The notes: generated from the sequence alone by a model not told the origin. A DNA stretch of 64,000 bases from Candidatus Aminicenantes bacterium (GCA_963770755.1 CAVYQZ010000009.1:209195-273194), one strand, 5' to 3'; counted from the first letter of the stretch, positions 7,912 to 23,220 are shown. A program made the numbers and translations.

Positions 7912-8838
7912 TTATTTTTTTCTTTCTAATACATCAAATCCAGATATTACGGCGTCAGAAATAAAATCCTGCAATAAACTGGAATCTCCCGTCATTTGAA
8001 ATTTATTAAGATATTTAATGTATAAAGGTTTTTTTTCCTGCAAAATCAGCGCTGGAGGGATATTTTTTTGCAGAAGCATGATCTGAATCAGAAGTCTGCC
8101 AATTCTGCCATTTCCATCAGAAAAAGGATGGATTTGTTCAAAGCGTCCATGAATTTCAGAAACATGGGCAATTATGTCTTTGCCGGGAGCATTTACATTT
8201 TTTATTAATTCTTTCAACAAGACGGGAATTTTCAAATAATTCGCGGTTGGAACGTAGGAGCCCAATATTCTTACTCCGTGATTACGGTAGGCACCGGCAT
8301 CCTCGCGAATGCTATTCATTAAAATGGCATGCAATTTTAAAACTAATCCTTCGTTTATTTTATTTTTATCAAGAACCCAAGTAAATAAATAGCGCAGCGC
8401 GGATTGATGATTTTTGGCCTCCAATTGTTCGGTTAAGCTTCTATGCGGCGGGGAAACATTTTCGAAAAGTATTCCAGCCGTTTCGTCTTCGGTCAGGGTG
8501 CTGCCTTCAATCCGATTTGTGTTGTAAGTTAAGGATAAAACAAATCGTTTGTGAATATCAGGATTGCTTAAAATTTCTTTCACAATGCCAGGATGTTTTT
8601 GACTTTTTATGGCGACGACTTCTTTTTTGGCTTGCAGTAAAGTATCCGGAATAATCTTTATTCCGGCATATTGGGAATACAATTCATTTATGGCATCTTG
8701 CTTCTTTTTTCGCGGCAGGGATTTTTCATTAATCCAGCTATTCAGGGTTGCAAAAGATACTTCCAGTTGTCTGGATATTTTTTCCTGGGTTAGTCCGGAA
8801 ATTTGCTGGATAAGTTTTAATTTTTCTGATATTTCCAT
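7912..8838 (-). CDS. Fic/Doc family protein (AMPylase-type) with an N-terminal HTH
   Basis: Canonical Fic motif HPFSDGNGRIGR; XRE-like HTH at the N-terminus (ISGLTQEKISRQLEVSFATLNSWIN); AT-rich gene. Confidence 0.85.
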   Translation of the reverse strand: MEISEKLKLIQQISGLTQEKISRQLEVSFATLNSWINEKSLPRKKKQDAINELYSQYAGIKIIPDTLLQAKKEVVAIKSQKHPGIVKEILSNPDIHKRFVLSLTYNTNRIEGSTLTEDETAGILFENVSPPHRSLTEQLEAKNHQSALRYLFTWVLDKNKINEGLVLKLHAILMNSIREDAGAYRNHGVRILGSYVPTANYLKIPVLLKELIKNVNAPGKDIIAHVSEIHGRFEQIHPFSDGNGRIGRLLIQIMLLQKNIPPALILQEKKPLYIKYLNKFQMTGDSSLLQDFISDAVISGFDVLERKK

Positions 8839-8963: not shown

Positions 8964-11294
8964 ATGGCTGACCAGAAATTCCGCAGCGCCTTGGGGACAA
9001 TCGCGCCGCTGTACTTTCTCCTGGGCGCTTTCAGCCTGGTATTCCAGACCGTGCTGCTGCGCGAATTTTTCACCGTGGCGGCCGGCAACGAAATTTCATT
9101 CGCCGTCGCCCTGGGCGCCTGGCTGCTCGGTGTCGGTGCCGGCTCCCTGTGCGCCGGATTTTTGAGCACCGGGACACAGCGCACGGCACATGCCCTGCCC
9201 TGGGTAGTGATCGCCATGTGCGTCAGCGCACCGCTGCTGCTGGCCGGCGTTCGCTGCCTGCAGCAGATCAGCGCCGTCCCGCCTGGGGCACTGATTCCCT
9301 TGAGTAAAACATTCTGGCTGGTTCCCCTGCTGACGATTCCTTTTAGCTTCTGCTGCGGTTTTGCTTTCCCGCAGGCCGGCAGGCTCGCCATGGCATCCAC
9401 GTTGAGCCCGGCCCAAAAAATGGTCCGCGCCTATGCCTGGGAGTGCATCGGCGCCCTGGCCGGCGGCCTGCTTTACACCTTTTGGCTGCTGGAAAAAATG
9501 AATCCCGTGCTGATTATCGCCTGCTTCACCCTGCCCCTGCTGTTCGGCTCGGCTTTTTCCGTTATGCTTGAAAAGAGAAAAAAAGCGCTGGCCGTCCATG
9601 TGCTGCTGCTGGCCTTCAACCTGGTCGCGATTCTGGGCGGAGGAGCCGGCAAGCTCGACTCATGGCTGGTGCGGCAAAGGTGGCGGGGTTTGTCCAGTAC
9701 GATCTGGGTGGAAGGCCGGGATTCAAAATTCCAGAACCTGCAGCTGGGCCTGAGCCACGGCCAATATTGCCTGTACGGCAACGGCCAGCTGGCCGCGGTA
9801 TTCCCGGATGATGACCAGCAGCAGATACTGGCCGCCCAGATTATGACCCAGCATCCGCGGCCGCGCCGCGTCCTGGTCATCGGCGACGGGGCCAGCGGCC
9901 TGGCCGCGCAGCTGCTGCAATATGAAATAACCAGCCTCACCGTCGTGGAGATAGACGGTGAGTTCCTGGAACTGGTTTGGAACCATTTGCCGGCCGGCCG
10001 ACGGCGCGAACTGCATGATCCGCGCCTGCGCATGCTGGTGATGGACGGCCGCCGCTTCGTCATGGAGGCGGCCAGGGCAGCGCACGGCCCCGAAAACAGA
10101 TTCGATCTGGTTTTCCTGCAGCAGCCCGATGCCTGGACCGCCCGCCTGAACCGGTATTACACCAGGGAATTTTTCATGGACTTGCGGGCGATCCTGAACC
10201 AGGGCGGCGTGGCGGCCATGCGCCTGACTTCAGCGGAAAATTATGTCTCGGAAATAACCAATCCTTACACGGCCACCATTTACCAAACCCTGAAAAGTAT
10301 TTTCCCGGCCATCAGCGTATCTCCGGGCCCGAGCAATTTCCTGGCTGCTTCATGGACACCGGACAGCGTCAGCAGCAATCCCCGCGTCCTGGCCGAACGC
10401 TATGAGCGCCTGGTCAGGCCCCCGGCCGACCTGCAGGCTATATTCGGCTCTTTGTACCCCGTACAAAAAACCGGATTCATCAAAAAGGCCCTGGATGAAT
10501 ACCCGCTCAGGTCATTGAACCGCGACCAGCGTCCCATTGCCTACTTTCTCTGCAGCCGTTTATTGGGCTGGACCAGCGGCAGCCCCCTTTCGGGCTGGTT
10601 CGATTTTTTCGAAAAAGTCGAATTTCGCAGCCTCTTTGTGATCCTGGTAGTGTTGTGCGTACTGGTGCTGCTGCGGGGCGTGCTGCGCCGGCGCAGGACG
10701 CCCGGGAATTTTTCACTTCTGTTGGCCGCGGCCGGCGGCGGATTTGCCGGGCTTTGCTTTGAAATTTTAACCATTTTCTATTTTCAGAATATCTGGGGCT
10801 ACGTTTACCAGGCCATCGGCCTGCTGATCGCCGCCTTCATGCTGGGCATGGGCGCCGGCGCCGTCTGCTTATATCGCTATCTTGAAACCAAGCCGCTTTC
10901 CAAAAAAAAAGCCAGAAATATGCTGGCCGCCATCCAGCTGCTCATCGCCGGCGCCAGCCTGACCTGCCTGCCGTTCATGAATTTTTTCGCCAAAATGGCC
11001 GGCGGATTGGGACGGATTGCACTTTTTTTCTGGCTGGGCGGGATTGGTTTTTTGATCGGGGCCATTCTGCCTCTGGCCCTGTGCGTCCATGGCCGGCAGG
11101 CGACCGCCGCCAAGGCCGGCTTTCTAATCGCCGCCGATTACCTGGGCGGCGCTATCGGCGCTCTGGCCGCGGCTTCCTTCTTACTCCCCCTCTACGGCAG
11201 CGCCAACAGCCTACTGCTCATAGCCGTGCCGGCTCTGACCACGGCGTTGCTGCTGCGGCTCGAAGCCGGATTCAATGATCCCGGCTCGGCGTGA
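8964..11294 (+). CDS. Polytopic membrane protein fused to a spermidine-synthase-like (aminopropyltransferase) domain
   Basis: N- and C-terminal multi-TM regions flank a SpeE-like Rossmann core (VLVIGDGASGLAAQLLQY...VVEIDGEFLEL...LVMDGRRF). Confidence 0.6.
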   Translation: MADQKFRSALGTIAPLYFLLGAFSLVFQTVLLREFFTVAAGNEISFAVALGAWLLGVGAGSLCAGFLSTGTQRTAHALPWVVIAMCVSAPLLLAGVRCLQQISAVPPGALIPLSKTFWLVPLLTIPFSFCCGFAFPQAGRLAMASTLSPAQKMVRAYAWECIGALAGGLLYTFWLLEKMNPVLIIACFTLPLLFGSAFSVMLEKRKKALAVHVLLLAFNLVAILGGGAGKLDSWLVRQRWRGLSSTIWVEGRDSKFQNLQLGLSHGQYCLYGNGQLAAVFPDDDQQQILAAQIMTQHPRPRRVLVIGDGASGLAAQLLQYEITSLTVVEIDGEFLELVWNHLPAGRRRELHDPRLRMLVMDGRRFVMEAARAAHGPENRFDLVFLQQPDAWTARLNRYYTREFFMDLRAILNQGGVAAMRLTSAENYVSEITNPYTATIYQTLKSIFPAISVSPGPSNFLAASWTPDSVSSNPRVLAERYERLVRPPADLQAIFGSLYPVQKTGFIKKALDEYPLRSLNRDQRPIAYFLCSRLLGWTSGSPLSGWFDFFEKVEFRSLFVILVVLCVLVLLRGVLRRRRTPGNFSLLLAAAGGGFAGLCFEILTIFYFQNIWGYVYQAIGLLIAAFMLGMGAGAVCLYRYLETKPLSKKKARNMLAAIQLLIAGASLTCLPFMNFFAKMAGGLGRIALFFWLGGIGFLIGAILPLALCVHGRQATAAKAGFLIAADYLGGAIGALAAASFLLPLYGSANSLLLIAVPALTTALLLRLEAGFNDPGSA

Positions 11295-13365: not shown

Positions 13366-13567
13366 TCTTCCTTATTCTTCCTTCATCATGGCGATTTTTA
13401 ATTGTACCCCGATTTTGCCCCCATGGCAATATGAAAAAGCGATTGGCATGTTTTTTTTAGATAAATTATATTGACATGCAAATATTAATATATCATAATA
13501 TTATTTTGCGTCAGCCCGCTACAAACGAATCCAGTCTGCCGGTGGGCGACGCCCAAGGAGTTGCCAC

Positions 13568-13822
13568 ATGAACGAAGACGAACTGAAGAATTTAAAAGCC
13601 GACAAGGTCGTGGATGCCCGCGGTATGGCCTGCCCCGGGCCGCTTCTGGAAGCCAAAAAAGCCATCACCGCGGTCCCGGTCGGCGCGGTCATGGAAGTAC
13701 TTTCGGCCGACGAAGGCACCAACAGCGACATCCCCATGTGGGCCAAGAAAATGCAGTATGAGTTCCTGGGCATTATCGCCGATGCCGGGTTCTGGAGACT
13801 TTTTCTAAAAAAATCGAAATAA
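13568..13822 (+). CDS. TusA-like sulfurtransferase (SirA/YedF/YeeD family)
   Basis: 84 aa with the CPGP (CPxP) motif: DARGMACPGPLLEAKKAI. Confidence 0.8.
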   Translation: MNEDELKNLKADKVVDARGMACPGPLLEAKKAITAVPVGAVMEVLSADEGTNSDIPMWAKKMQYEFLGIIADAGFWRLFLKKSK

Positions 13823-13846: not shown

Positions 13847-14152
13847 ATGGCCGCCAATACAAAGCCACCCTATGATAAAAAACGCTGCGCCCGTTCGGCG
13901 GCCATTTTTAAGACCTTGTCCCATCCGCAGCGGCTGCAGATTTTTTGCTGCCTGTGCGAGATGGAACGGACGGTCAGCGGCCTGCAGCAGGAATGCGCCA
14001 TCCCACAGGCGGTCATTTCACAGCACCTGTCGCGCATGCGCCTGGAGGGCCTGGTGCTGGCCAGGCGCAACGGCAGTTTTGTCAGTTACCGCATCGCCGA
14101 TCCCAAGCTGCTCAAATTGATCGACACCATGCAACGGATCACCCATGAATGA
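13847..14152 (+). CDS. ArsR/SmtB family metalloregulatory transcription factor
   Basis: Winged-HTH pattern (FKTLSHPQRLQIFCCL...VSQHLSRMRLEGLV). Confidence 0.75.
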   Translation: MAANTKPPYDKKRCARSAAIFKTLSHPQRLQIFCCLCEMERTVSGLQQECAIPQAVISQHLSRMRLEGLVLARRNGSFVSYRIADPKLLKLIDTMQRITHE

Positions 14153-14556: not shown

Positions 14557-17265
14557 ATGGATTACGACGTTCTGGTCATCGGCGCCGGCATCGCCGGCAT
14601 GGAAGCCGCCGTCAACCTGGGCGACATGGGCTACAAGGTGCTGCTGGTGGAAAAGGAGCCGAGCATCGGCGGCAAAATGATCCTGCTCAGCAAGGTCTTC
14701 CCCACCCTGGACTGCGCCAGCTGCATCTCGACCCCCAAGATGGCGCAAGCCGCCAGCCACGCCAACATCGACCTGCGCGTCTACAGCGAGGTCAGGGACG
14801 TGCGCAGCGACGGCAACGGCGGTTTCAGGGCCCGGGTCATCCAGAAACCGGCTTTCGTGGACTTCGCCAAGTGCACCGGCTGCCAGGACTGCGAAAAGGC
14901 CTGCACAGTCACCGTTCCCGATGAATACAACGAAGGGCTGGTGTCGCGGCGCGTGGCCCACATCGCGTTTCCCCAGGCCGTGCCCAAGAAGGCCGTCCTG
15001 GACCGCGCCGGCACGTCGCCCTGCACCCATGCCTGCCCGGCCGGCATCAAGGCCAACGGCTACATCTCACTCATCCGCCAGGGAGAATTCGCCAAGGCCT
15101 TCAAGCTGGTACTGGCCGCTGCGCCGCTGGTGGGCAGCTTGGGCCGGGCCTGCTACGCTTTCTGCCAGAACGAATGCACGCGCGAAGAGATCGGCGACGC
15201 CCCGCACATCCGCCATCTCAAGCGCTTCGTCGCCGACTGGTACTACGCCCGCCACCCCAAGCCCGAATATGGACTGCCGGAAAAAAAGCTGGAAAAAAAA
15301 GTGGCCGTCATCGGTTCCGGCCCGGCCGGCCTGAGCGCCGCCTATTTCCTGGCAAAAAACGGCTACCCGGTAACGGTCTTCGAGGCCGACGCCGAGGCCG
15401 GCGGCATGCTGCGCTCCAGCCTGCCCGAGTACCGCCTGCCCAAAAACGTCGTCGACCGCGACATCCTCAACGTGACCGCACTGGGAGTGGAGATCAGGAC
15501 TTCAACGCCCATCGAGTCGCTGGCGCGGCTGCGGCAGGATGGCTATGCCGCCGTGCTGGTCGCCATCGGCACGCCAAAGCCGAAAAAACTCATGATAGCG
15601 GGCGAAGACCTGCCTGGCGTGGTCAGCGGCATCGAGTTCCTGGCCGAGGTCGCCTGCGGCCAGAAGGTCGCACTAAACGGCAAGAGCATCGTGGTCATCG
15701 GCGGCGGCAATGTAGCCGTGGACGCCGCGCGCACGGCGCTGCGCCTGGGAGCCGCGAAGGTCGTGCTGCAGTATCGCCGTTCGCGGGCCGAGATGCCGGC
15801 CTTTCGTGAAGAGGTCGCCGCGGCGGAGGCCGAAGGGGTGGAACTCTCCCTGCTCAGCAATCCCGTCGCTTTCGAGGCTGACGCGGGCCGCCTGAAACGG
15901 GTGCGCAGCGTGCGCATGAAGCCGGTCGAGGCGGAAGCCGACGGCCGGCGCCGCACCGTCCCCATCCCCGACACCGAGTATGGCAGCGAGTTCGACCTGG
16001 CCATCGTCGCCGTCGGCCTGAGCGCCGAGGCGGCCGCTCTGAGGAATGAAATGCGTTTGAACCGCGACGGTTCCATCTGGGCCGATCCGCGCACGCTGCA
16101 AACGGAAAACCCCTGGCTGTTCGCCGCCGGCGACGCCGTGACCGGACCGGCCATGATCGTCCAGGCCATCGGCCTGGGCAAGCAAGCCGCTTTTTTCATG
16201 GACCGCTGGCTGCGTGCCGAGCCCATGGACGGCGTTGAGTTCGCTCCCAGCCTCCCGGCCGTCGACAAGCGGGACGTGCTGGCCCGCCAGTTCGATTTTC
16301 CGGCCCAGGCGGTGCATAAAAGCGAGCGCCATCCCCACGAGCGCGTCAAGGACTTCGATGAAGTCGATATTCCGTTCAGCGAAGCCGAAGCGCTGACCTC
16401 GGCCGCCAACTGCCTGAACTGCGGCATCTGCAGCGAATGCCAGGAGTGCAAGAACATTTGCCCGGCCGACGCCATCGACTTCGACCAGCGCGCCGTCGAA
16501 AACGAATATGCCGTCGGCTCCGTGGTTGTGGCCACCGGCTTCCGCCTCTTCCCGGCCGAGCTCATGGCCAACTTCGGCTTCGGCCGCTTCGCCAACGTCA
16601 TCACGGCCATGCAGATGGACCGCCTGGTCGCGCCGACCCGGCCCTACAACTATGTCCTGCGCCCCGGCGACGGCAAGACGCCGGCCGACATCGCCTATGT
16701 CTTGTGCACCGGCTCGCGCGACCGCACGGTGAACAATCCCATCTGTTCCCGCGTCTGCTGCATGTACTCGCTCAAACAGGCCCAGCTCCTACTCGGGGCG
16801 CTGCCGATAGCCGACGTCACCATCTACAACATCGACATCCGCGCCTTCGGCAAGGGCTATGACGAGTTTTTTGAACAAACCAGAGCCATGGGCGTGCGTT
16901 TCGTGAAAGGCAAGATCGCCAGGATCAGCGAGAAAGAGAACGGCAACCTGCTGGTGCGCTACGAGGACATCGACGACAACGGCACGGTTCGGGAAACCGA
17001 GCACGACCTGGTCGTGCTTTCGACCGGCATGGTGGCCCATGACGAGTGCCGGCGGCTGTTCAGCGGCAGCGAGCTGGCCGTCGACGAGAACCTGTTCGTT
17101 GCCCAGCCCGGCGAGCAGGTCGATCCGGCCCGCACCTCGATCCCCGGCGTCTTCAGCGCCGGCACGGCCACCGGGCCGCTGGACATCCCCGATTCGATCC
17201 TGCACGCCGGGGCCGCCGCCGCCCAGACCGCGGCCTATATTGAAAAAATGAAAAGGAAATCCTGA
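14557..17265 (+). CDS. HdrA-like flavoprotein with an inserted GltD/NfnB-like NAD(P)H-binding module (HdrL-type)
   Basis: N-terminal FAD motif (VLVIGAGIAGMEAA); GltD-like FeS region plus a second dinucleotide fold (VAVIGSGPAGLSAAYFLAKNGYPVTVFE...GGML); HdrA Cys signature (CTGSRD...ICSRVCC); ferredoxin CxxCxxC motifs. Confidence 0.75.
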   Translation: MDYDVLVIGAGIAGMEAAVNLGDMGYKVLLVEKEPSIGGKMILLSKVFPTLDCASCISTPKMAQAASHANIDLRVYSEVRDVRSDGNGGFRARVIQKPAFVDFAKCTGCQDCEKACTVTVPDEYNEGLVSRRVAHIAFPQAVPKKAVLDRAGTSPCTHACPAGIKANGYISLIRQGEFAKAFKLVLAAAPLVGSLGRACYAFCQNECTREEIGDAPHIRHLKRFVADWYYARHPKPEYGLPEKKLEKKVAVIGSGPAGLSAAYFLAKNGYPVTVFEADAEAGGMLRSSLPEYRLPKNVVDRDILNVTALGVEIRTSTPIESLARLRQDGYAAVLVAIGTPKPKKLMIAGEDLPGVVSGIEFLAEVACGQKVALNGKSIVVIGGGNVAVDAARTALRLGAAKVVLQYRRSRAEMPAFREEVAAAEAEGVELSLLSNPVAFEADAGRLKRVRSVRMKPVEAEADGRRRTVPIPDTEYGSEFDLAIVAVGLSAEAAALRNEMRLNRDGSIWADPRTLQTENPWLFAAGDAVTGPAMIVQAIGLGKQAAFFMDRWLRAEPMDGVEFAPSLPAVDKRDVLARQFDFPAQAVHKSERHPHERVKDFDEVDIPFSEAEALTSAANCLNCGICSECQECKNICPADAIDFDQRAVENEYAVGSVVVATGFRLFPAELMANFGFGRFANVITAMQMDRLVAPTRPYNYVLRPGDGKTPADIAYVLCTGSRDRTVNNPICSRVCCMYSLKQAQLLLGALPIADVTIYNIDIRAFGKGYDEFFEQTRAMGVRFVKGKIARISEKENGNLLVRYEDIDDNGTVRETEHDLVVLSTGMVAHDECRRLFSGSELAVDENLFVAQPGEQVDPARTSIPGVFSAGTATGPLDIPDSILHAGAAAAQTAAYIEKMKRKS

Positions 17266-19019
17266 TGGAAGATAAAAAGAGGAAGATCGGCGTTTATATC
17301 TGCCACTGCGGCGGCAACATCTCCGACCACGTCAACGTCGAGGCCGTGCGCAAGCAGGTAGAGGATAAGTACGGCGTCACCGTGGCCAGGACCTCGATGT
17401 TCACCTGCTCCGATGCCTCGCAGAACGACATGATCAAGGATATCCGCGAGCAGGGGCTTGACGGCATGGTGGTGGCTTCCTGCTCGCCCAAGCTGCACCT
17501 GACGACCTTCCGCAACATGTCGACGCGGGCCGGGCTCAACCCTTTCCAGTACGTCCAGGTAAATATCCGCGAGCAGTGTTCCTGGGCCCATTCCGACGAC
17601 CCATCGGGCGCCACCTGCAAGGCGGCAAACCTGGTCGGGGCCGGCATCGAGAAGGCCCTGCGCCAGGAGGCGCTGCAACCCATACGCGTGACCTCGGTCA
17701 AAAGGGTGCTGGTCATCGGCGCCGGCATCGCCGGGCTGCGCGCGGCGCTGGAACTGGCCGACCTGGGGGTCGAAGTCTTCCTGATCGAAAAGGAAGCGGC
17801 TGTCGGCGGCCAGGTCGCCAAGCTCGGTGAGATGTTTCCGGTGGGCAAGACCGGGTCCGTCCTGATCGACAGTCTGCTGGCCGAGGTAAATAAAAGAGCC
17901 AACATCACCCTGTTCCTGAACGCGGAGCTGGCCGAAAAGAGCGGCCACATCGGCGAGTTTGAATTGGCGATCAGGATCAGACCCGCCTCGGCGGGCGCGG
18001 AGGAGACGGTGCGCATCGTGGTGGGGGCCATCGTGGTGGCCAGCGGCTTCGCCGAGTACGAGCCCAAGTCGGGCGAATATGAATTCGGTCGGCCGGGAGT
18101 GGTCACCCTCTCCGAATTCGAGCGCCTGCTGCGGGAAAGCGGCGAGCAACTTCTCCACAACGGCCGTGAAATGAAGAATATCGCTTTCATCTACTGCGTC
18201 GGCAGCCGTCAGGGCGCGGATAGCGAGGAGGCCAACCGCTACTGCTCGCGCACGTGCTGCAGCACCGCTACGCACCTGGCGCTGCAGGCCAAGAAGAATT
18301 TTCCCACGACCCGCTGCTACCATTTTTTCCGCGACATGCGCACCTACGGCAAGTTCGAGTCGCTCTACGAGGAAGCGGGCAAGGCGGGATCGGTCTTCCT
18401 GCGCTTCCACGAAGAGCATCCGCCCCAGCTCAAACGCGAGGGCGATTCCTGGCTGGTCGCCGTGCAGGACCTGTCCACGGGCGGCGCCGAGATCGGCGTA
18501 CCGGCAGACCTGGTGGTTCTGGTCACCGGCATGACGGCGCGGGCCAACGACAACCTGACCCGGGTGCTCAAGCTGCCCCTGGGCGCCGACCGCTTCTATA
18601 ACGAGATCCATCCCAAGTTGCGTCCGGTGGAGACGATCATCGACGGCGTCTACATCGCCGGCAGCTGCCAGGGGCCGAAAAACGCCGGCGAAAGCGTGGT
18701 TTCCGCGCTTTCCACCGTGGCCAAAGCGGCCGCACTGCTGATCAAGGGCTATGTCGACCTGCAGCCCTTCGTGGCTACGGTCAAGCCCGAGCTCTGCACC
18801 TGGTGCGGAAAATGCCAGCCGGCCTGTCCCTACAGCGCCATCGAGAAAGTGGCCTACGGCGACAAGGATGTGGCCAAGGTGGTCGATGTCCTGTGCAAGG
18901 GCTGCGGCGCTTGCCTGCCGGTGTGCCCGCTCGACGCCACCCAGCTCAAGGGCTACAGCGACGAACAGATCGAGGCCATGATCGATGTCCTGGCCCGGGA
19001 GGCCGCCCATGAAGGATAA
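17265..19019 (+). CDS. HdrA-like heterodisulfide-reductase subunit A family flavoprotein (QmoA/QmoB-like)
   Basis: Cys-rich N-terminus (IGVYICHCGGNI); FAD motif (VLVIGAGIAGLRAALEL); HdrA signature (CVGSRQ...YCSRTCC); C-terminal 2x[4Fe-4S] ferredoxin. Confidence 0.8.
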   Translation: MEDKKRKIGVYICHCGGNISDHVNVEAVRKQVEDKYGVTVARTSMFTCSDASQNDMIKDIREQGLDGMVVASCSPKLHLTTFRNMSTRAGLNPFQYVQVNIREQCSWAHSDDPSGATCKAANLVGAGIEKALRQEALQPIRVTSVKRVLVIGAGIAGLRAALELADLGVEVFLIEKEAAVGGQVAKLGEMFPVGKTGSVLIDSLLAEVNKRANITLFLNAELAEKSGHIGEFELAIRIRPASAGAEETVRIVVGAIVVASGFAEYEPKSGEYEFGRPGVVTLSEFERLLRESGEQLLHNGREMKNIAFIYCVGSRQGADSEEANRYCSRTCCSTATHLALQAKKNFPTTRCYHFFRDMRTYGKFESLYEEAGKAGSVFLRFHEEHPPQLKREGDSWLVAVQDLSTGGAEIGVPADLVVLVTGMTARANDNLTRVLKLPLGADRFYNEIHPKLRPVETIIDGVYIAGSCQGPKNAGESVVSALSTVAKAAALLIKGYVDLQPFVATVKPELCTWCGKCQPACPYSAIEKVAYGDKDVAKVVDVLCKGCGACLPVCPLDATQLKGYSDEQIEAMIDVLAREAAHEG

Positions 19020-19287
19020 CAGCCGCGAACGGTTTCCGGAAAGCATCTCCATCATCGGCAAAAAACGCGAGATCGCCCGCCAGGAGTTTGCCGTGCGCGC
19101 CCGGATTCTGGCCCTGCTGCGGGAGAAGGGTCCGCTGACCGTGCCCGAAATCGCCCAAGCCCTGGCCATTCCCGCCTATGACGCCAACTGGTGGCTGATG
19201 GGCTTCGTGCGCTACAACCAGGTCAAGGCTTCGGAAAAGGCCGATGACGAAGGCTACTACCGCTATGCGCTCATCGAGGCGAAATGA
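19008..19287 (+). CDS. Small hypothetical protein (possible winged-helix) inside the Hdr-like operon
   Basis: ATG at 19008 overlaps the hdrA stop. The ORF is conserved in frame with neighbours on both sides; no recognisable motif. Confidence 0.4.
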
Positions 19288-20417
19288 CCATGGAAAAAGT
19301 CAACGAGAACATCCTGGCCCAGATCAAGAAACTGGGCGCCTTCGACCTGGAAGCCTGCTACAGCTGCGGCACATGCTCGGCCATCTGCCCCCTCTCCAAG
19401 GACAGCGCCTCCTTCCCGCGACGCATGATCCGCTACTCGCTGCTCGGCCTCGAAAAACGGATACTGGCTGCCCCCGAGCCCTGGCTTTGCTATTACTGCG
19501 GCGAATGCAGCGAGACCTGCCCGCGCCAGGCCGAACCCGCCGCCCTGATGATGGCCCTGCGCCGTTTTGCCACCCGCCGGTATGCGCTGGGCCGCGCCGC
19601 CGACGCAGTTTATTCGTCAATGGCCTCGATTTTTACCTGGGTCCTGCTCAGCGCCGCGTCACTCGTTTTTGTTTTGCTGGCCTACAACCCCGAAATGAAC
19701 CGCAAACAGGTCGACTTCATGTCATTTATCGGCCTCGAGCCCATCCACTTGGCCGGCATCGCGCTGGTGGCCTTCATTGTCCTGGTCGCGGCGGCGCAAA
19801 TATGGATCCTGTACCGCAATCTGCGCACCTGCCTCCCGGTCCGAAGGGACCGGGACGTCGGGACTCAAACGGCCCCTCCAGCCGGCGCGGCCGTTCTCTC
19901 GGCGAAAAAGGCGGCCGTTTCGGCCTGGAAAGCCCTGAGCGAATCGGTCGTTCAGAAACGGTTTGCGGAATGCGACAACGGCCGGCCGCGCCGCCTGGCG
20001 CATATGGCCGTCTCCTGGGGTTTCATGGGCATGTTCCTGGCCACGGTCATCATCGGCGCCGTCGATTTCCACTGGCTGCCCTGGCCGCGCTGGGTTTCGC
20101 TCGTGATCGGTTCAGTCTCCGGTGTGCTGACCACGCTCGGCCTGGCCTACTATATTTACCTGCGCCTCAGCCGCAAGACGGCGGTGGGCAAATATTCCCA
20201 TCCCAGCGACTGGGCCTTCCTCATCCTGCTGGCCCTGTCGGTGCTCAGCGGCTTCGTCATGGTCCTGTTCCGCTTCCTGAACCTGCCCATGGCCGCTTAC
20301 GGCACATTCGCTTTCCACCTGGTCGTGGTTTTCGACCTGCTGGTGACGTTCCCCTTCAGCAAATTCGCCCACGTGCTCTACCGGCCGGTCGCACTTTGGA
20401 TCGCCGGATTGAAATAA
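19284..20417 (+). CDS. QmoC-like subunit: HdrC-type 2x[4Fe-4S] ferredoxin fused to an HdrE/NarI-like membrane cytochrome-b domain
   Basis: N-terminal CYSCGTCSAICP and CYYCGECSETCP motifs, followed by ~6 TM helices with His residues. Confidence 0.7.
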   Translation: MTMEKVNENILAQIKKLGAFDLEACYSCGTCSAICPLSKDSASFPRRMIRYSLLGLEKRILAAPEPWLCYYCGECSETCPRQAEPAALMMALRRFATRRYALGRAADAVYSSMASIFTWVLLSAASLVFVLLAYNPEMNRKQVDFMSFIGLEPIHLAGIALVAFIVLVAAAQIWILYRNLRTCLPVRRDRDVGTQTAPPAGAAVLSAKKAAVSAWKALSESVVQKRFAECDNGRPRRLAHMAVSWGFMGMFLATVIIGAVDFHWLPWPRWVSLVIGSVSGVLTTLGLAYYIYLRLSRKTAVGKYSHPSDWAFLILLALSVLSGFVMVLFRFLNLPMAAYGTFAFHLVVVFDLLVTFPFSKFAHVLYRPVALWIAGLK

Positions 20418-20446
20418 CGCAAAAAAGTAATTCGAGGAGGAAATAA

Positions 20447-20929
20447 ATGAGCGACACGCAAGTTCCCGAAAAAGTCAGTCTGATCGTCATGAGCGGTGAC
20501 ATGGACAAGGTGATGGGCGCCTTCATCATCGCCAACGGCGCCGCCGCCTTCGACATGCAGGTGACCATGTTCTTCACTTTCTGGGGCTTGAAGGCCATCC
20601 AGAAAGGCAGCCGCACCGGCAAGGGCATCATGGGCAAAATGCTGGGCGTCATGAACCGCGGCGGCATCGAGCGCCTCTCCCCCAGCAAGCTTAACATGGG
20701 CGGAATGGGCCGCTGGATGTTCAAGAAGATGATGAAAAAACACAACGTAACGCCTTTGGCAGAACTGCTGCGCCAGGCCCAGCAACAAGGCGTCCAGCTC
20801 ATCGCCTGCGAGATGAGCATGAACGTCATGGAAATCGCCAAGGAAGACCTGATCGATGGAGTCAAGGTCGGCGGCGTGGCCACGTTCATCGCTGAAGCTT
20901 CCGAATCCAAGATCCAGCTGTTTATTTAA
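20447..20929 (+). CDS. DsrE/DsrF-like sulfur-relay family protein
   Basis: 160 aa; DsrE-fold pattern with the conserved Cys in QLIACEMS. Confidence 0.65.
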   Translation: MSDTQVPEKVSLIVMSGDMDKVMGAFIIANGAAAFDMQVTMFFTFWGLKAIQKGSRTGKGIMGKMLGVMNRGGIERLSPSKLNMGGMGRWMFKKMMKKHNVTPLAELLRQAQQQGVQLIACEMSMNVMEIAKEDLIDGVKVGGVATFIAEASESKIQLFI

Positions 20930-20947: not shown

Positions 20948-21781
20948 TTGCTTTATTCCGAACCGCTGTTCCGTCCGCCGGCCGAAGCCACGTCGCTGAT
21001 CGTCCAGGTCAGCGAAGGCTGCGCTTACAACCGCTGCCGGTTCTGTCCGATGTACAAGGGCAAAAAATTTCGGGTCCGCGCTCAAGAGGAGATCGATCGC
21101 CATCTGGACAATCTGAGCAGGGCGTTCGGGACCGCCCAGAACCGTGTGTTCCTGGCCGACGGCGACGCCCTGGTGCTGCCCACGGCGGATTTGCTGACCG
21201 TCATGGCGCAGGTCCGGCGCTCATTCCCGACCGTGCGCCGTTTCGGCGTTTACGGTTCGGTCTTTTCACTGGCTGACAAGACCCGCAACGATCTACTTGA
21301 ACTCAAGCAGGCCGGACTGCGCACGGTGTACCTGGGACTGGAGTCAGGCGACGAAGAGACGCTGCGACGGATGGAAAAATACATGGAAGCGCGGCGCATG
21401 GCCGAACTCTGCCGCCGCGTGGTCGCGGCCGGCCTCAACCTGTCGGTGATGGTCGTCATCGGCCTGGGCGGCCGCTCGCGCTCCCGGCTGCACGCCGAAG
21501 CCTCGGCAAGGCTGGTCAACGAGATCGGCCCCAGCCACACCTCGCTGCTGAACCTGCTGCTCGCCCACACCCCACTGGCGGAAAATCCTGATTACAATGC
21601 CTTCGGCATTGAAGACTATTTTTCCGAAACAGCGGCCTTTGTCTCGCGCATCGAATGCAGGACTATTTTTCGCGCCAACCACGCCTCCAACCCGGTGGCG
21701 CTGGAAGGGGTGCTGCCACGCGATCGCGATAGTATCCTAAGCCAGCTGGAGATGGCCTTATCTCACTATCGCGATGCGTAA
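20948..21781 (+). CDS. Radical SAM domain protein, function unknown
   Basis: CAYNRCRFC (Cx3Cx2C) cluster motif near the N-terminus. Confidence 0.75.
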   Translation: MLYSEPLFRPPAEATSLIVQVSEGCAYNRCRFCPMYKGKKFRVRAQEEIDRHLDNLSRAFGTAQNRVFLADGDALVLPTADLLTVMAQVRRSFPTVRRFGVYGSVFSLADKTRNDLLELKQAGLRTVYLGLESGDEETLRRMEKYMEARRMAELCRRVVAAGLNLSVMVVIGLGGRSRSRLHAEASARLVNEIGPSHTSLLNLLLAHTPLAENPDYNAFGIEDYFSETAAFVSRIECRTIFRANHASNPVALEGVLPRDRDSILSQLEMALSHYRDA

Positions 21782-21783
21782 CA

Positions 21784-22075
21784 TACTTTCACTATGATTT
21801 CAACTAGTCTCTAAGTTGTTGAAATCATCTAGTGAAAGTATACCATCACTTGATGTTTTCAGCGGCTTTCTATGCATGCTGAAAACATAGTGATGGTAGA
21901 CGAATCAGATCCGCCTAAGTCGGCGGATGATTTGTGCTGCCCCTCTCTTTGGAAGAGAGGGGTTGGGGTGAGTTATGTGTTCTCCAACTCATTTCCCGGG
22001 CAGGGTCTTTCCATCACTGGATGTTTTTGACGGATTGATTGTATTGTCAAAAACATAGTGCTGGTAGACAAATCA
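21784..22075. repeat. Cluster of REP/BIME-like bulged hairpin elements: hairpins at 21784-21840 (inverted orientation), 21843-21896 and 22010-22064; each of the latter two is followed by GGTAGAC(G/A)AATCAG; three short GC hairpins lie between
   Basis: Imperfect ~55-nt palindromes whose arms carry CACTNGATG on one side and CATAGTG on the other, leaving an asymmetric 2-nt bulge. Hairpins 1b and 1c differ by compensatory stem changes (CAGC/GCTG versus TGAC/GTCA). Confidence 0.8.
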
Positions 22076-22800: not shown

Positions 22801-23220
22801 TTAGCGATTCGAGCTATTTCTCTTGTTTCTTGATATTTCCCAAAATTCCCTGGGCGTTAGAATTGCTATTGATTCGATTTTTTTCAATACCAAAAGATCC
22901 TTGTCACCAGTGATAATGAAATCGACTCCGGCGTTAACAGCCAAGCCCAATATTTTATCATCTTCACGATCACGGCATACATTTTTCTTTAATTTTTTTG
23001 CATCAGCAATCAGACAAAACTCTTTCAAGAACGATAAAATCGCCTGAATTTTATCCTGAGGCATTTTGAGTTTCTTCGAAAAGTTTTTTTCAAGTTCCCC
23101 GAGAATATGATCGCTTAAAACAATGGTATGCTGCTGCAAACAAAATTCGAAAATGGAATCGGCCAAACCATGAGTCGCGAATGCCGAAAAAATAACGTTG
23201 GTATCAAAAACAAGTTTCAT
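22801..23220 (-). CDS. PIN-domain toxin (VapC-like)
   Basis: MKLVFDTNVIFSA...D-rich PIN acidic residues; overlaps the upstream RHH gene. Confidence 0.75.
   Translation of the reverse strand: MKLVFDTNVIFSAFATHGLADSIFEFCLQQHTIVLSDHILGELEKNFSKKLKMPQDKIQAILSFLKEFCLIADAKKLKKNVCRDREDDKILGLAVNAGVDFIITGDKDLLVLKKIESIAILTPREFWEISRNKRNSSNR

Follow-up and report, generated by a model that had tools for sequence, protein, structure and literature searches.

Modules of the HdrA type are the best understood flavin-based electron-bifurcating devices, and most bacterial HdrA gene sets have no known substrate. The locus analysed here lies on a stretch of 64,000 nucleotides from Candidatus Aminicenantes bacterium (GCA_963770755.1 CAVYQZ010000009.1:209195-273194; the whole stretch is referred to as the window), and it encodes an HdrA that carries an NAD(P)H oxidoreductase within its own polypeptide chain. 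The protein at its centre, a 902-amino acid (aa) fusion of the HdrL kind that we call HdrL, had been recognized in a preliminary description as an HdrA with an embedded module resembling the small subunit of glutamate synthase (GltD). Our analysis confirmed that HdrL is an HdrA flavoprotein core into which a complete NAD(P)H module of the GltD/NfnB fold, with flavin adenine dinucleotide (FAD) and two [4Fe-4S] clusters, has been spliced. We propose, with a probability of roughly 0.6, that this HdrL, trimmed of two HdrA domains, acts together with a partner HdrA encoded directly downstream as an NADPH-linked, Qmo-like electron-transfer complex that is probably bifurcating or confurcating and tied to sulfane-sulfur metabolism.

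An HdrA core with a nested NAD(P)H module

The open reading frame (ORF) and every motif quoted in the preliminary description were borne out by translation, and the domain boundaries could be mapped on both sides of the insert. Pfam placed Pyr_redox_2 at aa 247-538 (E 3.9e-44) and Fer4_20, an FeS domain of the GltD/DPD type, at aa 153-231 (E 3.5e-16), while in NCBIfam aa 142-641 matched GltD-type families (PRK12771, 454.9 bits) and the two ends matched HdrA families (HdrA2 at 449 bits with a cut-off of 1100 and its best stretch at aa 604-897; HdrA, 322.6 bits with a cut-off of 1400). All NCBIfam matches fall under their curated cut-offs, and the protein therefore lies outside any curated family. 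In sequence searches of the PDB, aa 5-150 and aa 625-894 aligned with residues 146-290 and 293-564 of 5odc_A, the HdrA of the Methanothermococcus Mvh-Hdr complex. The region between them aligned with NfnA of NfnABC (9bov_A, aa 153-643, 320 bits) and with Thermotoga maritima NfnB (4ylf_B, aa 153-555, 254.6 bits), and it also matched StnC (8oh5_C) and glutamate synthase small subunits. By the alignment to 5odc_A, the 474-aa insert replaces two loop residues just before the second motif of the inserted ferredoxin domain, both CxxCxxCxxxC motifs of which are present (C106/109/112/116 and C625/628/631/635, equivalent to C246-C256 and C293-C303), and C53/C56 correspond to Cys194/Cys197. The insert itself comprises an FeS domain (C156, C160, C199, C203, C207 and K222), an FAD fold (GSGPAG, aa 253-258), an NADPH fold (GGGN, aa 382-385, and Y406-R407-R408) and a permuted segment (aa 590-623) with C619/C622. 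The surrounding core is a thioredoxin-reductase-like FAD domain with GxGxxG and a [4Fe-4S] motif C...C-x3-CC, whose cysteines C717, C730, C734 and C735 are invariant in 39/39 sequences. An AlphaFold2 model built with 39 homologues (mean predicted local distance difference test score 80.3, predicted template modelling score 0.75, with most 10-residue blocks of the insert averaging >90) provided additional support: Foldseek against the PDB returned 9bov_A (E 6.5e-49, root-mean-square deviation 1.9 Å over 480 columns) and 4ylf_B (target template modelling score 0.81). The embedded region is hence an NAD(P)H-binding GltD/NfnB fold and not just the canonical inserted-ferredoxin domain of HdrA. What HdrL lacks are HdrA's N-terminal FeS domain and the ferredoxin domain at its C-terminus, as the protein spans only residues 142 to ~570 of 5odc_A.

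A fusion of this sort could be an artefact, arising from misassembly or from read-through of two adjacent genes, and we give this explanation practically no weight. The same architecture recurs in at least 120 homologues among the matches listed in the protein search (857-931 aa, 57-100% identity) and in 53 genome loci from many lineages, and invariant ligands flank both junctions on either side. All 24 cluster-ligand cysteines are invariant in the 39 sequences, and both C53 and C56 are kept in 39/39 orthologues.

The preliminary description had assumed a GltD unit that opens with its FeS domain. All parts and all ligands of such a unit are present, but the canonical order of GltD and NfnB is not, as the first CxxC segment and the accompanying helix (ERVKDFDEV...EA) have moved behind the Rossmann domains. 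The Fer4_20 match starts only at profile position 29, and of the first cluster motif of GltD the insert's beginning holds just one half, C-x3-CP, the other half standing at the insert's end (ERVKDFDEV...SEAEALTSAANC619LNC622G). When aa 586-623 were re-joined ahead of aa 151-556, the NfnB spacing CxxC-x6-C-x3-CP was restored and the scores rose, from 254.6 bits over residues 44-462 of 4ylf_B to 275.9 bits over residues 9-462, and from 232.6 to 254.3 bits for 5jca_L. The relocated CxxC segment is common to 9bov_A, 9n5u_A and 8oh5_C (residues ~537-595; the CLNCG segment of HdrL aligns with 9bov_A 537-568), which identifies the HdrL insert as the fold's NfnA/StnC version, a circular permutant of GltD/NfnB as in NfnA of NfnABC. 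A reading of CLNCG as part of the HdrA ferredoxin motif was rejected, in that HdrA aligns only from C625 and the segment fits the N-terminus of NfnB once permuted. As C619 and C622 abut C625, the sequence places the distal GltD cluster next to a cluster of the inserted ferredoxin domain, and the two may be adjacent in space too.

The same comparison bears on the role of the insert's flavin. The insert is 35-38% identical to the large subunits of bifurcating NfnSL (4ylf_B and 5jca_L), and its FAD might be a second bifurcating flavin as in NfnSL, with the two sites placed head to head via their low-potential arms, a possibility raised for HdrA9-11 of ANME-1, a lineage of anaerobic methanotrophic archaea (ANME) (Chadwick 2022, PMC9012536). 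We regard this as improbable. The permuted topology is that of NfnA, and so is the lysine ligand: cluster A7 of Caldicellulosiruptor saccharolyticus NfnA is ligated by C108, C147, C151 and K170 (PMC11829005), to which C160, C199, C203 and K222 of HdrL correspond in an ungapped alignment, all four being invariant in the 39 orthologues, whereas both NfnSL proteins have Glu at the position of K222. In NfnABC the FAD of NfnA is terminal in the chain, a non-bifurcating NADPH port (PMC11829005). Furthermore, neither the operon nor the conserved cluster described below has an FNR-like gene that would encode an NfnS-type small subunit (FNR fold with [2Fe-2S]). As for the nucleotide, the HdrL motif YRRSRAEMPA matches NADPH-binding NfnA and NfnB sequences. 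Residues 406-408 (window 15772-15780) read YRR in 27/39 orthologues and CLE in the other 12, which suggests that NADPH-specific and NADH-specific versions of the same complex exist.

A complementary partner HdrA

The gene following hdrL overlaps it by one base and encodes a second HdrA that, by alignment to 5odc_A, carries both domains missing from HdrL, the N-terminal FeS domain as well as the ferredoxin domain at the C-terminus. Within the pair, the inserted ferredoxin domain and the Cys197 equivalent (C56) occur in HdrL alone: where the methanogen protein reads FPTNDCSIC, with Cys194 and Cys197, the partner reads FPVGKTGSV. This pattern is general, in that none of 42 orthologous partner HdrAs has Cys at the Cys194/197 position, while C13, C15, C48 and C73 are kept in 42/42; an insertion at the position of the inserted domain is retained in 5/42. 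In the Mvh-Hdr complex, it is Cys197 from the opposite protomer that completes a protomer's N-terminal cluster, and the same complementarity has been used to propose heterodimers of tandem ANME HdrA genes (Chadwick 2022, PMC9012536). Because domains and cysteines are complementary, because the pattern is kept in all 42 partners, and because the two genes stand side by side in 41/41 loci, we infer that HdrL and the 584-aa HdrA form an obligate asymmetric heterodimer, which would contain one copy of each electron arm.

Gene neighbourhood and its conservation

The two HdrA-type genes are part of an operon whose genes, between a strong sigma-70-like promoter and a terminator-like hairpin, mostly overlap or nearly abut (Table 1). 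The system is defined by members that the preliminary description had not noticed: the partner HdrA, the QmoC-like membrane subunit, TusA and DsrE2.

Table 1. The operon around hdrL, with positions counted from the first nucleotide of the window
Feature	Position	Strand	Evidence and remarks
Sigma-70-like promoter, TTGACA-17-CATAAT, 11 of 12 matches	13471..13499	+	Overlapped by AT-rich palindromes
TusA sulfur-carrier protein, 84 aa, CPGP motif, Cys22	13568..13822	+	60% identical to TusA of related locus L001; NCBIfam TusA E 1.5e-10, below cut-off
ArsR/SmtB-family regulator, 101 aa, Cys-rich	13847..14152	+	Pfam HTH_5; NCBIfam HTH_metalloreg 75.9 bits (cut-off 55)
Free-standing MvhD, [2Fe-2S] connector subunit, 136 aa	14145..14555	+	Pfam FlpD E 2.9e-30
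HdrL-type fusion protein, 902 aa	14557..17265	+	ATG to stop ORF; domain searches, structure model
HdrL aa 1-150: HdrA FAD domain, first half (thioredoxin-reductase-like); GxGxxG, C53/C56; C106, C109, C112, C116	14557..15006	+	Aligned to 5odc_A 146-290
HdrL aa 151-624: nested NfnA/GltD-type NAD(P)H module	15007..16428	+	Pfam, NCBIfam, PDB alignment, Foldseek, invariant ligands
HdrL aa 625-902: C625, C628, C631, C635, then remaining HdrA FAD domain with C717...C730, C734, C735	16429..17262	+	Aligned to 5odc_A 293-564
Partner HdrA, 584 aa, without inserted ferredoxin domain and Cys194/197	17265..19019	+	Aligned to 5odc_A 4-235 and 315-652
Small conserved protein, about 92 aa, winged-helix-like; start codon uncertain (ORF opens 18985)	19009..19287	+	Same-position homologues in related loci L001 and L002
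QmoC-like membrane subunit, 377 aa: HdrC-like 2x[4Fe-4S] and NarI-like domain	19284..20417	+	Pfam Fer4_8, Nitrate_red_gam
DsrE2-type sulfur-transferase-like protein, 160 aa, Cys121	20447..20929	+	Pfam DrsE_2 E 4.5e-53
Radical SAM protein, 277 aa, after dsrE2, same transcription unit	20948..21781	+	Pfam Radical_SAM
Terminator-like hairpin	21909-21928		After radical SAM gene

To assess how far this arrangement is shared, we scanned genomes, one per species, which gave at least 598 relatives, of which the best 80 were kept and supplemented with two fetched loci to a total of 82; neighbours were then counted by BLASTP over those loci that had enough flank. HdrL is at least 49% identical in 53 loci and at most 44% identical in the other 29. 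The genomes of the 53 are labelled, by record titles and with labels of metagenome-assembled genomes (MAGs) unverified, as at least 15 phylum-level lineages, among them Aminicenantes, Bacillota (Desulfofundulus), Chloroflexota, Actinomycetota, Gemmatimonadota, Bacteroidales, Ignavibacteriales, Verrucomicrobia, Kiritimatiellales, Pirellulales, Zixibacteria, Dormibacterota, Spirochaetota, proteobacteria and a Thermoplasmata archaeon; apart from an identical 902-aa sequence on record in the protein database (NCBI/ENA, on a contig of 275,553 bp), the closest relatives of HdrL are proteins of Aminicenantes MAGs (82-86% identity). TusA was found upstream of HdrL and the partner HdrA downstream in 41/41 loci each, and MvhD directly upstream in 33 of the 41; in others DsrE2 stands in between. 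The small protein is present in 31/37 loci, DsrE2 lies within the cluster in 20/28 and the ArsR-family regulator accompanies it in 16/39. As the terminal module, 20 loci have a QmoC-like protein and 16 have HdrC and HdrB, while 1 has none. The active-site cysteines of TusA (Cys22, 49/49) and DsrE2 (Cys121, 35/35), five cysteines of MvhD (48/48) and eight cysteines of the QmoC-like subunit (21-22/22) are likewise conserved. A description of this TusA-MvhD-HdrL-HdrA-(QmoC|HdrCB)-DsrE2 cluster was not found in the literature searched, which does not prove its absence from the literature.

Because TusA always accompanies the complex, and DsrE2 and an ArsR-type regulator often do so, the complex probably serves sulfane-sulfur (persulfide) redox metabolism. 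The same neighbours might instead point to an NADPH-driven persulfide or polysulfide reductase that detoxifies or assimilates reactive sulfur and works without bifurcation, TusA and DsrE2 capturing sulfane sulfur, the redox complex merely delivering the electrons and the ArsR-type protein acting as a persulfide sensor. Besides the linkage of TusA and DsrE2, this explanation would account for the ArsR-family gene within the operon and the palindrome over the operon promoter, and for the CoA-disulfide-reductase-like and extra DsrE-like genes of 7-9 related loci. In Staphylococcus aureus, CstA unites rhodanese, TusA and DsrE domains for the handling of reactive sulfur. We nonetheless consider a plain reductase unlikely: a membrane complex with two flavins, about ten clusters and haem far exceeds what it would need, no site for persulfide reduction is obvious in the QmoC variant, and the ArsR-family protein reached only 63 bits against the BigR-type family of NCBIfam, under its cut-off of 155.

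The AT-rich palindromes at 13467-13504, e.g. ATAATATTAT and TATATTGACAT/ATATTAATATA, lie across both the -35 and the -10 element of the promoter upstream of tusA and are a possible operator for the operon's ArsR-family regulator. All-against-all clustering of flanking ORFs returned mostly shadow frames of conserved genes. The groups that looked real were a second ArsR in 7 loci, an ABC ATPase in 8 and two that were recognized by eye from their sequences, a pyridine-nucleotide-disulfide oxidoreductase resembling CoA-disulfide reductase in 7 loci (L005, L018, L020, L026, L032, L033, L050) and a further DsrE-like protein in 9 (L006, L007, L010, L012, L017, L022, L024, L049, L075); the latter two fit a link to persulfide metabolism.

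MvhD, whose ORF ends one base ahead of the start of HdrL, stands immediately upstream of the fusion gene, as the preliminary description had stated, and it was also right that no hydrogenase is to be seen, as none of the window's long ORFs has a hydrogenase domain. In principle, a free-standing MvhD that keeps its cysteines could serve an H2-dependent complex of the Mvh-Hdr type by docking MvhAG as in methanogens, with the hydrogenase encoded elsewhere. This appears highly improbable, since the window offers no hydrogenase among its long ORFs, none lies within 9 kb in two related loci with gene calls, and MvhD homologues are known to serve other partners, e.g. Flx, Qmo and MetFV (PMC2702500, PMC9012536).

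Of the remaining operon genes, the one for the small protein gave a weak ArsR HTH match and otherwise no family; its homologues of 80-100 aa lie between the partner HdrA and QmoC or HdrC (13439-13684 in L001, 13534-13812 in L002), with W62 and Y86 invariant and no conserved Cys. Either a structural or a regulatory role is conceivable for it. The QmoC-like subunit has about six transmembrane helices predicted from hydropathy. A 400-aa ORF at 19244-20446 (+), Arg/Pro-rich, of low complexity and without family matches, was rejected as a shadow frame in GC-rich DNA, the real gene lying at 19284-20417 in another frame. The radical SAM protein stands outside the conserved cluster: none of the 82 related loci encodes a homologue, and its gene probably joined the operon in this lineage only. 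Outside the operon, genes for a PIN-domain protein (22801-23220, -) and a Fic/DOC-family protein (7912-8838, -) flank the region and are possible remnants of toxin-antitoxin systems or mobile elements. At 8964-11294 (+), a 776-aa protein has a spermidine-synthase domain preceded by a long N-terminal part with weak matches to fused MFS/spermidine synthase families, and is an unusual polyamine aminopropyltransferase fusion.

Proposed electron flow and comparison with known systems

In the NADPH-linked, Qmo-like complex that we propose, NADPH would donate a hydride to the FAD of the insert, from which single electrons would pass to the Lys-ligated cluster and on to the second GltD cluster (C619, C622), then through the two inserted-ferredoxin clusters to the N-terminal cluster shared between the subunits and finally to the HdrA-type FAD. 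On this path NADP(H) would sit on an arm whose end, in the Mvh-Hdr of methanogens, is free ferredoxin. The high-potential arm would fall to the QmoC-like subunit, whose HdrC-like domain would lead via b-type haem to menaquinone in the membrane, a place that soluble HdrCB would fill in 16 related genomes, and MvhD would join the C-terminal ferredoxin domain of the partner HdrA to a third redox partner. As a whole, the complex would connect three couples, namely NADP(H), menaquinone and a third one, and it probably does so through bifurcation or confurcation at a flavin. The direct coupling of NAD(P)H into a bifurcating subunit, as put forward in the preliminary description, fits this architecture, with bifurcation itself standing as a proposal.

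Several points weigh against this proposal. Both the heterodimer and the wiring of its electrons are read from alignment to Mvh-Hdr, and the link to sulfur metabolism comes from gene neighbourhood only. The QmoC-like subunit matches the qmoC family of NCBIfam over its full length (E 4.4e-63), at 213.9 bits, below the equivalog cut-off of 300, and its membrane domain has three invariant histidines (H240, H345 and H363, kept in 21-22/22) where two b haems need four. Finally, an operon of the QmoC type has no CCG/HdrB site at which sulfur chemistry could take place.

A more far-reaching version, which we put forward only tentatively, holds that this is a widespread, hitherto uncharacterized respiratory or bifurcating complex coupling the sulfur, quinone and NADPH pools, in which sulfane sulfur on TusA/DsrE2 would be the third substrate, of intermediate potential, reached via MvhD. 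NADP(H) would here replace ferredoxin at the low-potential arm, and menaquinone (QmoC) or a disulfide (HdrCB) would take the high-potential arm. If true, flavin-based bifurcation would gain a new type, found outside the classical sulfur specialists. In any event, the locus offers a defined unit with conserved cofactor ligands, a proposed heterodimeric HdrA core, an NADPH port at the position where the methanogen enzyme passes electrons to ferredoxin, and interchangeable output modules, membrane-bound (QmoC) or soluble (HdrCB). Its strict linkage to TusA raises the testable question of whether a machine of the Hdr/Qmo type couples NADPH, quinone and sulfane sulfur bound to protein in many anaerobes other than the sulfur specialists. 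The biochemistry is feasible because close homologues of HdrL are found in cultured species of Desulfofundulus and Desulfotomaculum, the operon of Desulfofundulus salinus being of the HdrCB version.

The fusion itself is not new, having been described as HdrL (Strittmatter 2009, PMC2702500) and in ANME-1 HdrA9-11 (Chadwick 2022, PMC9012536), and is alone of modest interest; what appears to be undescribed is the variant that combines the trimmed HdrL subfamily, the complementary partner and the operon with sulfur carrier and QmoC. The HdrL of Desulfobacterium autotrophicum and other Desulfobacterota is akin to ours in that it too joins to HdrA an NAD(P)H module resembling the small subunit of glutamate synthase, with an adjoining mvhD and no hydrogenase, and one such protein (Sfum_0824) has been seen in the proteome of Syntrophobacter reducing sulfate (PMC5947623). 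HdrL ORFs of Desulfobacterales MAGs (L078, L082 and others), which were used for the comparison in place of D. autotrophicum HdrL itself, share the insertion point and the permuted module and align as single high-scoring segment pairs, colinear over aa 4-893. In light of these likenesses, the complex could be a classical soluble HdrL system, in which NAD(P)H is oxidized, HdrBC reduces the disulfide or trisulfide of DsrC and ferredoxin is the co-acceptor, like FlxABCD-HdrABC; such a role has been proposed (PMC2702500, PMC5947623), MvhD adjoins, and 16 related loci do have HdrC and HdrB. We hold this to be quite unlikely for the present locus, which encodes a membrane subunit resembling QmoC but not an HdrB with CCG domains, lacks dsr genes in the operon and among the long ORFs of the window, and has its nearest relatives under Aminicenantes labels and not among sulfate reducers. 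The preliminary description, which had placed the protein with the HdrL of sulfate reducers, thus named the right kind of fusion, but ours is a separate subfamily, 38-42% identical and shorter by two domains. The 29 loci of lower identity, which include Desulfobacterales and Dehalococcoidia, contain long forms (open frames of ~1116-1166 codons) that keep the N- and C-terminal ferredoxin domains of HdrA and are classical HdrL, besides shorter forms of ~910-940 aa. As opposed to the query operon, these sulfate-reducer-type loci have MvhD, where present, downstream of HdrL and have neither TusA nor DsrE2, and no obligate partner HdrA or QmoC.

ANME-1 HdrA9-11, compared by description only, likewise have their inserted ferredoxin domain interrupted by ~500 aa, and tandem HdrA genes that complement each other in the N-terminal domain and Cys197 have been described in the same study (Chadwick 2022, PMC9012536). 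The two features are not combined in one pair there, whereas here the NfnB-bearing subunit also carries Cys197; the hosts there are archaeal methanotrophs, and the gene contexts are HdrBC or FdhAB and not TusA/DsrE2/QmoC. NfnA of NfnABC and StnC of StnABC (9bov, 9n5u, 8oh5) are the best sequence and structure matches of the insert and share with it the permutation with its CLxCG segment, the Cys3Lys cluster and the YRR motif. In NfnABC, by contrast, the NfnA module is fused to a formate-dehydrogenase-like domain, NfnB and NfnC are NuoF/NuoE-like and the bifurcating site is centred on flavin mononucleotide (PMC11829005); the alignment of HdrL stops at residue 586 of 1178 in 9bov_A, short of the formate-dehydrogenase-like domain, and the operon has no genes for NuoF/NuoE-like (Bfu-type) partners. 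Likeness to the sHdr system (shdrC1B1AHC2B2 with LbpA) is slight, the operon having no HdrB/CCG or lipoate-binding genes and sHdrA (6tjr_A) matching weakly at 115.8 bits.

QmoABC likewise has two HdrA-type flavoproteins and an MvhD-type module; its QmoC, in which an HdrC-like FeS domain is joined to a NarI-like membrane domain, has a putative counterpart in the QmoC-like subunit. In some lineages of the operon family described here HdrCB takes the place of this subunit, an alternation that is known for Qmo complexes, in Gram-positive sulfate reducers. Type II Qmo-like sets are reported in organisms with or without Dsr/Apr, those without being of unknown function (Neukirchen 2023, PMC10504309). 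Our operon differs in having no aprAB (Apr-type domains are absent from its genes and from the long ORFs of the window, short ORFs elsewhere not having been scanned), in encoding MvhD as a separate protein and not as a domain of QmoB, and in the NADPH module of one flavoprotein. FlxABCD-HdrABC of Desulfovibrio also brings pyridine-nucleotide input to the HdrA core, via FeS proteins and an MvhD-like subunit. There, the NADH-binding unit consists of the separate FlxABC proteins, which enter by the MvhD arm, whereas in HdrL the module is fused into the ferredoxin arm.

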